Of a stretch of DNA of 64,000 nucleotides, positions 47,255 through 47,500 are shown one piece after another (positions within the stretch are counted from its first letter, which is position 1; each line of letters begins with the position of its first letter). The notes below the pieces were generated by a model. It saw only the letters and a program-made list of their open reading frames with translations, made no database searches and was not told the origin of the DNA. The position numbers and the translations under genes are program-made. The DNA is from Escherichia coli (GTDB lineage: Bacteria > Pseudomonadota > Gammaproteobacteria > Enterobacterales > Enterobacteriaceae), in assembly GCF_003334335.1 (NCBI RefSeq), contig NZ_QOWQ01000010.1. One strand, given 5' to 3'.

Positions 47255-47270
47255 TTCTTGCGAGTTTCAG

Positions 47271-47298
47271 AAAAGGGGGCCTGAGTGGCCCCTTTTTT
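47271..47298. terminator. rpsO intrinsic terminator (bidirectional shape)
   Basis: AAAA-GGGGGCC-TGAGT-GGCCCC-TTTTTT. Confidence 0.88.
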
Positions 47299-47500
47299 CA
47301 AGCTGACGGCAGCAATTCACTGGAAACTAATGTATTGTTGCTATGAATGATCTTCCGTTGCAGAGGTTCGCGCGGCTAATGAGAGGCTTTACCCACATAG
47401 AGCTGGGTTAGGGTTGTCATTAGTCGCGAGGATGCGCAGAAGATCGGGTATTAACACCAGTGCCGTAAGGTACTGTCTAAGAAAGAGAAAGGATATTACA

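Follow-up and report, generated by a model that had tools for sequence, protein, structure and literature searches.

Gene order and identity of the rpsO-pnp region

All positions given here refer to the window, the whole 64-kb stretch of Escherichia coli DNA that was analysed. Four genes on the plus strand surround the spacer under study:

45892-46836, plus strand: truB (open reading frame list and RefSeq)
46985-47254, plus strand: rpsO, ribosomal protein S15, 89 aa (open reading frame list and RefSeq annotation of the identical sequence)
47501-49636, plus strand: pnp, PNPase, 711 aa (RefSeq CDS start; protein identical to the K-12 protein)
49745-50629, plus strand: nlpI

The stop codon of rpsO is TAA 47252-47254 and the rpsO-pnp spacer therefore spans positions 47255-47500. 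Upstream, an Rfam match to the S15 leader covers 46927-47041 with 117.6 bits. Many complete E. coli genomes carry the segment 46900-47600 with 100% identity, and it finds a match in every one of those searched (5426/5426). The spacer (246 bases), the sraG gene (216 nt) and the PNPase protein are each 100% identical to those of E. coli K-12 MG1655, and the experiments published for K-12 are therefore directly applicable to this sequence. We regard it as nearly certain that the sequence represents the control region separating rpsO from pnp in E. coli, the same as in K-12. Support presented here comes from the identity to K-12, the Rfam match, RNA folds, and conservation with covariation; start sites, cleavage sites and regulatory effects are drawn from the literature, and the exact -10 hexamers and exact cut positions proposed below were deduced in this study. 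Detailed work on the region goes back to the 1980s, and the role of SraG was published in 2016 (Fontaine et al., PMC5029454). All four of its elements, the terminator, the pnp leader, the UUG start and SraG, were thus already known, and nothing that we found contradicts the identification.

For comparison across species, a scan for S15 in species-representative genomes yielded 80 Enterobacterales loci, 79 of which had an alignable pnp, and these loci provided 77 distinct spacers.

A bidirectional terminator shared by rpsO and sraG

The first element downstream of rpsO is recognised by its sequence, its folds, its conservation and its published characterisation (PMC5029454):

47270-47298, both strands: bidirectional intrinsic terminator (T1 of rpsO and terminator of sraG)

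Its stem is formed by GGGGCC (47276-47281) pairing with GGCCCC (47287-47292) around the loop TGAGT (47282-47286); AAAA (47271-47274) precedes the stem and TTTTTT (47293-47298) follows it. The plus strand folds with -19.9 kcal/mol (z -3.6) and the minus strand with -15.7 kcal/mol (z -2.3), and a pattern scan also reported the minus-strand terminator. Each strand carries a stable G+C-rich hairpin followed by a U-tract, as expected of an intrinsic terminator. The core GGGGCC...GGCCCC was kept in 77 of 77 distinct Enterobacterales spacers, in which the purine-rich and T-rich flanks are mutually complementary. In agreement with this, T1 and the sraG terminator have been described as one bidirectional terminator, which forms the 3' end of the monocistronic rpsO mRNA and at which the majority of SraG clones stop, with some read-through on the SraG side detected by circular RT-PCR (PMC5029454). 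The sequence, the folds of both strands, the scan and the published data bear out the proposal of the initial annotation that the rpsO terminator, with an A-run on its 5' side and a T-run on its 3' side, acts on both strands.

The element is like other bidirectional terminators between convergent units in that a single G+C-rich hairpin is flanked by an A-run and a T-run, each strand reading as a hairpin and then a U-tract. It differs in that its two directions are unequal: the U-tract comprises 6 U on the rpsO side (UUUUUUC) and is weaker on the minus strand, the SraG side, with 4 U (CUUUUCU).

In Erwinia, Pantoea and Tatumella, the conserved terminator is separated from the stop codon of rpsO by about 65 extra bases, and this stretch forms a small hairpin of its own in some of them (loci L024, L030, L043, L047, L054, L062-L064, L068-L071, L074, L078, L079 and L082).

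The pnp leader carries a conserved RNase III hairpin

Three features were assigned to the plus strand between the terminator and the ribosome-binding site of pnp:

47333-47346, plus strand: putative pnp promoter P2, with the likely -10 element TATTGT at 47333-47338 and the start at 47343-47346
47349-47445, plus strand: hairpin R, the RNase III substrate that triggers pnp autoregulation (minimum-energy fold, covariation, PMC5029454)
47458-47475, plus strand: another, smaller hairpin, located after hairpin R and before the Shine-Dalgarno sequence, inside the 5' 42 nt of SraG (folds in each species)

The leader segment 47300-47510 folded with -73.2 kcal/mol (z -4.45), and none of 200 shuffled sequences folded as well. 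Together with the RNase III-cleaved hairpin known from the literature (PMC5029454), this substantiates the earlier view of the pnp leader as a structured RNA. Hairpin R comprises 37 pairs in the minimum-energy fold, including a continuous helix of 47371-47382 with 47417-47428. Its helices were paired in 85%, 79% and 95% across 77 species, and changes on both sides occurred at 19 pairs. Hairpin R thus forms an extended double-stranded stem, at least some two helical turns in length, and compensatory changes have preserved it. It also contains two invariant arms, TTCGCGCGGCTAATGAGAG and CATTAGTCGCGAGGATG, that are conserved across Enterobacterales. Its sequence is that of the K-12 pnp leader hairpin characterised in the studies of Portier, Régnier, Jarrige and Carzaniga (summarised in PMC5029454), from which it shows no difference.

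The RNase III sites in the leader hairpin are located 39 and 77 nt from the P2 start (PMC5029454). Given the 38-nt spacing of the two sites and the usual 2-nt 3' overhang, applied to the predicted fold, the cuts would fall between 47381/47382 and 47419/47420, which is consistent with a P2 start at 47343. The in vitro pnp RNA of the same study extends from the P2 start to nt 79 of the ORF (47579 in the window) and is given both as "1-234" and as "237 nt with additional GGG" (PMC5029454). The P2 start is therefore either 47346 or 47343, a 3-nt ambiguity. The methods and the Figure 6 legend of that paper also count the sizes of SraG (216) and SraG-S (177) inconsistently. A block at P2, CTAATGTATTGTTGCT, is conserved across species; the promoter was absent from the output of a simple sigma-70 promoter scan.

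The small hairpin at 47458-47475 keeps its structure across species and varies in sequence. All seven of its pairs showed changes on both sides (7/7), and its pairing reached just 54% in the MAFFT alignment because this variable stretch aligns poorly.

An Rfam scan gave no separate family for the pnp leader on the plus strand, and database scans therefore label the region as SraG only. The apical loop of the RNase III hairpin holds an insertion of approximately 125 nt in Serratia sp. DD3 (L055, spacer 1471-1839), which may resemble an ERIC/IRU repeat (GAGTGAGTCCCTAGGAGC...GTGACTAGGGTGAACGAG). Other spacer insertions were observed in L009, L013 and L053.

pnp translation starts at a conserved UUG codon

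The RefSeq CDS of pnp starts at the codon TTG 47501-47503 in both O157:H7 and K-12, and a Shine-Dalgarno sequence precedes it at a spacing of 7 nt:

47489-47493, plus strand: Shine-Dalgarno sequence AAGGA of pnp

TTG is the start codon in all Enterobacterales loci with an alignable pnp (79/79), and nearly all of these 79 loci have an AAGGA-type motif at the same spacing. In E. coli the pnp frame is open back to TTG 47414, which gives an ORF of 740 aa. This extended ORF was rejected as a candidate, since an in-frame stop codon lies at most 90 nt upstream of the TTG in 68 of the 77 distinct spacers. The start site is thus characterised by a Shine-Dalgarno sequence within 5-9 nt, a conserved TTG, and an upstream frame whose extension is not conserved. 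Experimentally, the UUG gave a toeprint at a distance of 15 nt, and mutation of the TTG to TGA led to loss of the pnp mRNA (PMC5029454). RefSeq, the conservation in 79 of 79 loci and this toeprint all agree with the assignment of the pnp start to TTG 47501 in the initial annotation.

SraG extends to position 47486

The antisense RNA is represented on the minus strand by the following features:

47271-47486, minus strand: SraG primary transcript, 216 nt (K-12 RefSeq b4449; start from circular RT-PCR)
47271-47442, minus strand: part of SraG covered by RF00082 (cmscan), approximately the older 174-nt annotation (SraG-S in PMC5029454)
47493-47498, minus strand: putative -10 hexamer TAATAT of sraG, at -12 to -7 (placed by sequence geometry)

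The comparison with the known sraG sequence that had been suggested at the outset showed complete agreement: K-12 sraG (b4449, NC_000913.3 3311183-3311398) maps to 47271-47486 with 216 of 216 bases identical. It begins with the minus-strand T at 47486, 15 nt ahead of the pnp TTG, and its 3' end is the last U of the terminator tail at 47271. In the cmscan search, RF00082 was matched over the full model (1-177 of 177) with 164.3 bits, compared to a gathering score of 50, and an E value of 3.4e-31. The score above the gathering threshold, the position between rpsO and pnp opposite to both, and the identity to b4449 all identify this RNA as SraG (also PsrO), with the same sequence, position, strand and shared rpsO terminator and nothing that differs. 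SraG also folds beyond shuffled expectation; the z scores of the terminator on each strand, the leader and SraG range from -2.3 to -4.45.

The initial annotation had expected SraG on the minus strand at roughly 47270-47440. The strand and the 3' side were correct, as seen from the Rfam match at 47271-47442 and from b4449, but the 5' end lies at 47486. The end near 47440 is that of the superseded 174-nt annotation, which is still the basis of the Rfam model. No RNA starting at this old 5' end was detected, and the primary 5' end was found 42 nt further upstream by circular RT-PCR with and without polyphosphatase treatment (Fontaine et al. 2016, PMC5029454). Mutation of the -10 region eliminated the 216-nt RNA and decreased processed forms of approximately 190 nt ninefold; this mutation is close to the Shine-Dalgarno sequence and does not overlap it (PMC5029454). 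By its geometry, the -10 element is probably TAATAT between the pnp Shine-Dalgarno sequence and the TTG, a placement that fits the published description. The spacer does contain a minus-strand transcription start site, on which the initial annotation had made the existence of the antisense RNA depend, as demonstrated by the published primary 5' end and the loss of the RNA in the -10 mutant.

The simple sigma-70 scan returned neither the sraG promoter nor any promoter near 47825, the approximate position of an additional antisense start predicted further upstream (PMC5029454). The supplements of an E. coli 3'-end mapping paper (PMC7815308) contain no sraG entry and no matching coordinates. A promoter-like arrangement noticed by eye on the minus strand upstream of the old 5' end at about 47442, TAGACA-18 nt-GTTAAT, was rejected, as no clones start there (PMC5029454).

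The Rfam model of SraG represents the 3' 172 nt only and lacks the 5' 42 nt (47443-47486) that are essential for pnp repression (PMC5029454). Pipelines relying on Rfam consequently set the 5' end of SraG at 47442, about 44 nt downstream of the mapped end at 47486, and report a truncated sRNA that lacks the portion affecting pnp translation.

SraG and the RNase III hairpin in the control of pnp

In K-12, RNAs initiated at the rpsO promoter either terminate at T1 or extend into pnp, and P2, situated downstream of T1, gives rise to a monocistronic pnp mRNA (PMC5029454). Autoregulation consists in the PNPase-dependent decay of the pnp mRNA that is set off once RNase III has cut the leader, and translation of the processed pnp mRNA is then repressed by CsrA (PMC5029454). 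SraG abolished the 30S toeprint at the UUG in vitro, whereas a 5'-truncated form did not, and the duplex of SraG with the leader showed new RNase III cuts (PMC5029454). Overexpression of sraG diminished pnp mRNA and protein, a mutation of the sraG promoter raised both 1.3-fold, and the 5' 42 nt of SraG were the part required for pnp repression (PMC5029454).

Placed on the coordinates of the window, the regulation very probably proceeds as follows. Transcription from the rpsO promoter would end at the terminator 47270-47298 or continue into pnp, and P2, with a start at about 47343-47346, would provide a pnp-only mRNA. The leader would form the long hairpin 47349-47445, both arms of which would be cleaved by RNase III. 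PNPase would then strip the small 5' fragment, leading to degradation or repression of the mRNA, and PNPase would in this way cap its own synthesis. Translation begins at UUG 47501. On the minus strand, SraG would start at 47486 from a weak promoter placed between the ribosome-binding site of pnp and its start codon, and this transcript would end at the terminator hairpin read in the opposite direction (47271). Being fully complementary to the pnp leader, SraG would pair with it such that its 5' 42 nt adjoin the ribosome-binding site and block 30S binding; the duplex would create new RNase III cuts, and the effect on the PNPase level is small.

Comparable arrangements have been reported outside Enterobacterales. 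RliD of Listeria monocytogenes has no notable sequence similarity to SraG, but RliD and ref41 of Enterococcus faecalis are likewise antisense RNAs opposite the pnpA region by rpsO (PMC5029454).

Conservation of the spacer follows the plus strand

Covariation was analysed on a MAFFT alignment of the 77 spacers with the E. coli structure (70 pairs), slid-partner controls and 500 shuffles. The structure was paired in 84.5% of the cells, compared to 42-50% in the slid controls, and 37 of the 70 pairs changed on both sides; the observed values were reached by none of the 500 shuffles. Rfam detected SraG in 39 of 40 loci tested, always adjoining rpsO and on the opposite strand, the single locus among these 40 that lacked a match being that of Candidatus Schmidhempelia bombi. 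Two of the loci (L021 and L022) belong to Affinibrenneria salicis and lie on one scaffold (NZ_VYKJ01000001.1, at about 394545 and 677918) with identical spacers, representing either a real duplication of rpsO-pnp or an assembly artefact.

In every one of the 77 species, hairpin R was more stable on the plus than on the minus strand, the two averaging -48.3 and -31.6 kcal/mol, respectively, a difference of approximately 17 kcal/mol. This asymmetry arises because conserved G-U and U-G pairs of the plus strand, found for example in 72/77, 75/77 and 58/77 species at three positions, become A-C mismatches in SraG. Furthermore, the exact TAATAT hexamer was present at the homologous place in just 25 of the 77 species, and the stretch complementary to the 5' 42 nt of SraG is not conserved in sequence. 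These comparisons show that what is deeply conserved under the label "SraG" is for the most part the pnp leader. The strand asymmetry does not contradict the published function of SraG in E. coli, since the match between a cis-antisense RNA and its target is perfect for any sequence, but it limits what can be concluded about SraG in other genera. More generally, it calls for caution in taking the conservation of a cis-antisense RNA as proof of selection on the antisense RNA itself.

We tentatively raise the possibility, which we hold to be less probable than its opposite, that the Rfam "SraG" evolved as the leader of the pnp mRNA and has been catalogued on the wrong strand, with antisense transcription confined to lineages that have a chance -10 box. 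SraG would then have been added, in some lineages only, to an autoregulatory leader of ancient origin instead of being an Enterobacterales-wide sRNA.

A further reading appears rather doubtful, namely that the antisense transcript is real and functionally marginal, arising in any species in which the A/T-rich sequence that separates the ribosome-binding site from the start codon looks by chance like a -10 box. The preference of hairpin R for the plus strand, the A-C mismatches, the scarcity of the exact hexamer and the variable complement of the essential 5' 42 nt are in its favour, yet a cis-antisense RNA can pair with its target without conservation of its own sequence. The promoter knockout had only a 1.3-fold effect, the expression of SraG is low and no further target came to light in E. 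coli, but against this stand the loss of the 30S toeprint in vitro and the decrease of pnp mRNA and protein upon overexpression (PMC5029454). A sub-nanomolar affinity for Hfq, a target in trans reported in Yersinia, and an older autoregulation-defective mutation that maps to the sraG -10 box also argue against a marginal role (PMC5029454). The published data point to repression of pnp by SraG in E. coli through pairing with the leader.

It is improbable that SraG acts mainly in trans on distant mRNAs with the help of Hfq or ProQ and overlaps pnp only incidentally. SraG is reportedly mentioned in a paper on the RNA-binding protein ProQ, which we counted in favour of such a role. Hfq binds SraG at 0.49 nM, but deletion of hfq left both the SraG level and its effect on pnp unchanged (PMC5029454). 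SraG of Yersinia pseudotuberculosis was reported as a repressor of the YPK_1206-1205 operon, but this target has no homologue outside the genus, and microarrays, target prediction and northern blots on ten candidates revealed no target in E. coli (PMC5029454). Action in cis on the pnp leader is our preferred reading of SraG.

That the minus strand of the spacer codes for a small protein, instead of or besides a non-coding RNA, is extremely unlikely: short ORFs of 14-23 codons do lie inside SraG, but none of them is preceded by a Shine-Dalgarno-like sequence, spacer lengths in the different species lie between 239 and 366 nt, with indels that are not multiples of three, and a 58-aa minus-strand ORF (47389-47565) begins upstream of the SraG start site.

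Other RNA elements in the window

Further Rfam matches in the 64-kb window comprise the following elements:

7985-8092, minus strand: ArcZ sRNA
29737-29858, plus strand: greA leader
36511-36594, plus strand: tRNA
40380-40453, plus strand: tRNA
40545-40645, plus strand: rimP leader
45344-45414, plus strand: naRNA4, by its coordinates just upstream of rbfA

All of these are usual for this part of the E. coli chromosome and were expected.
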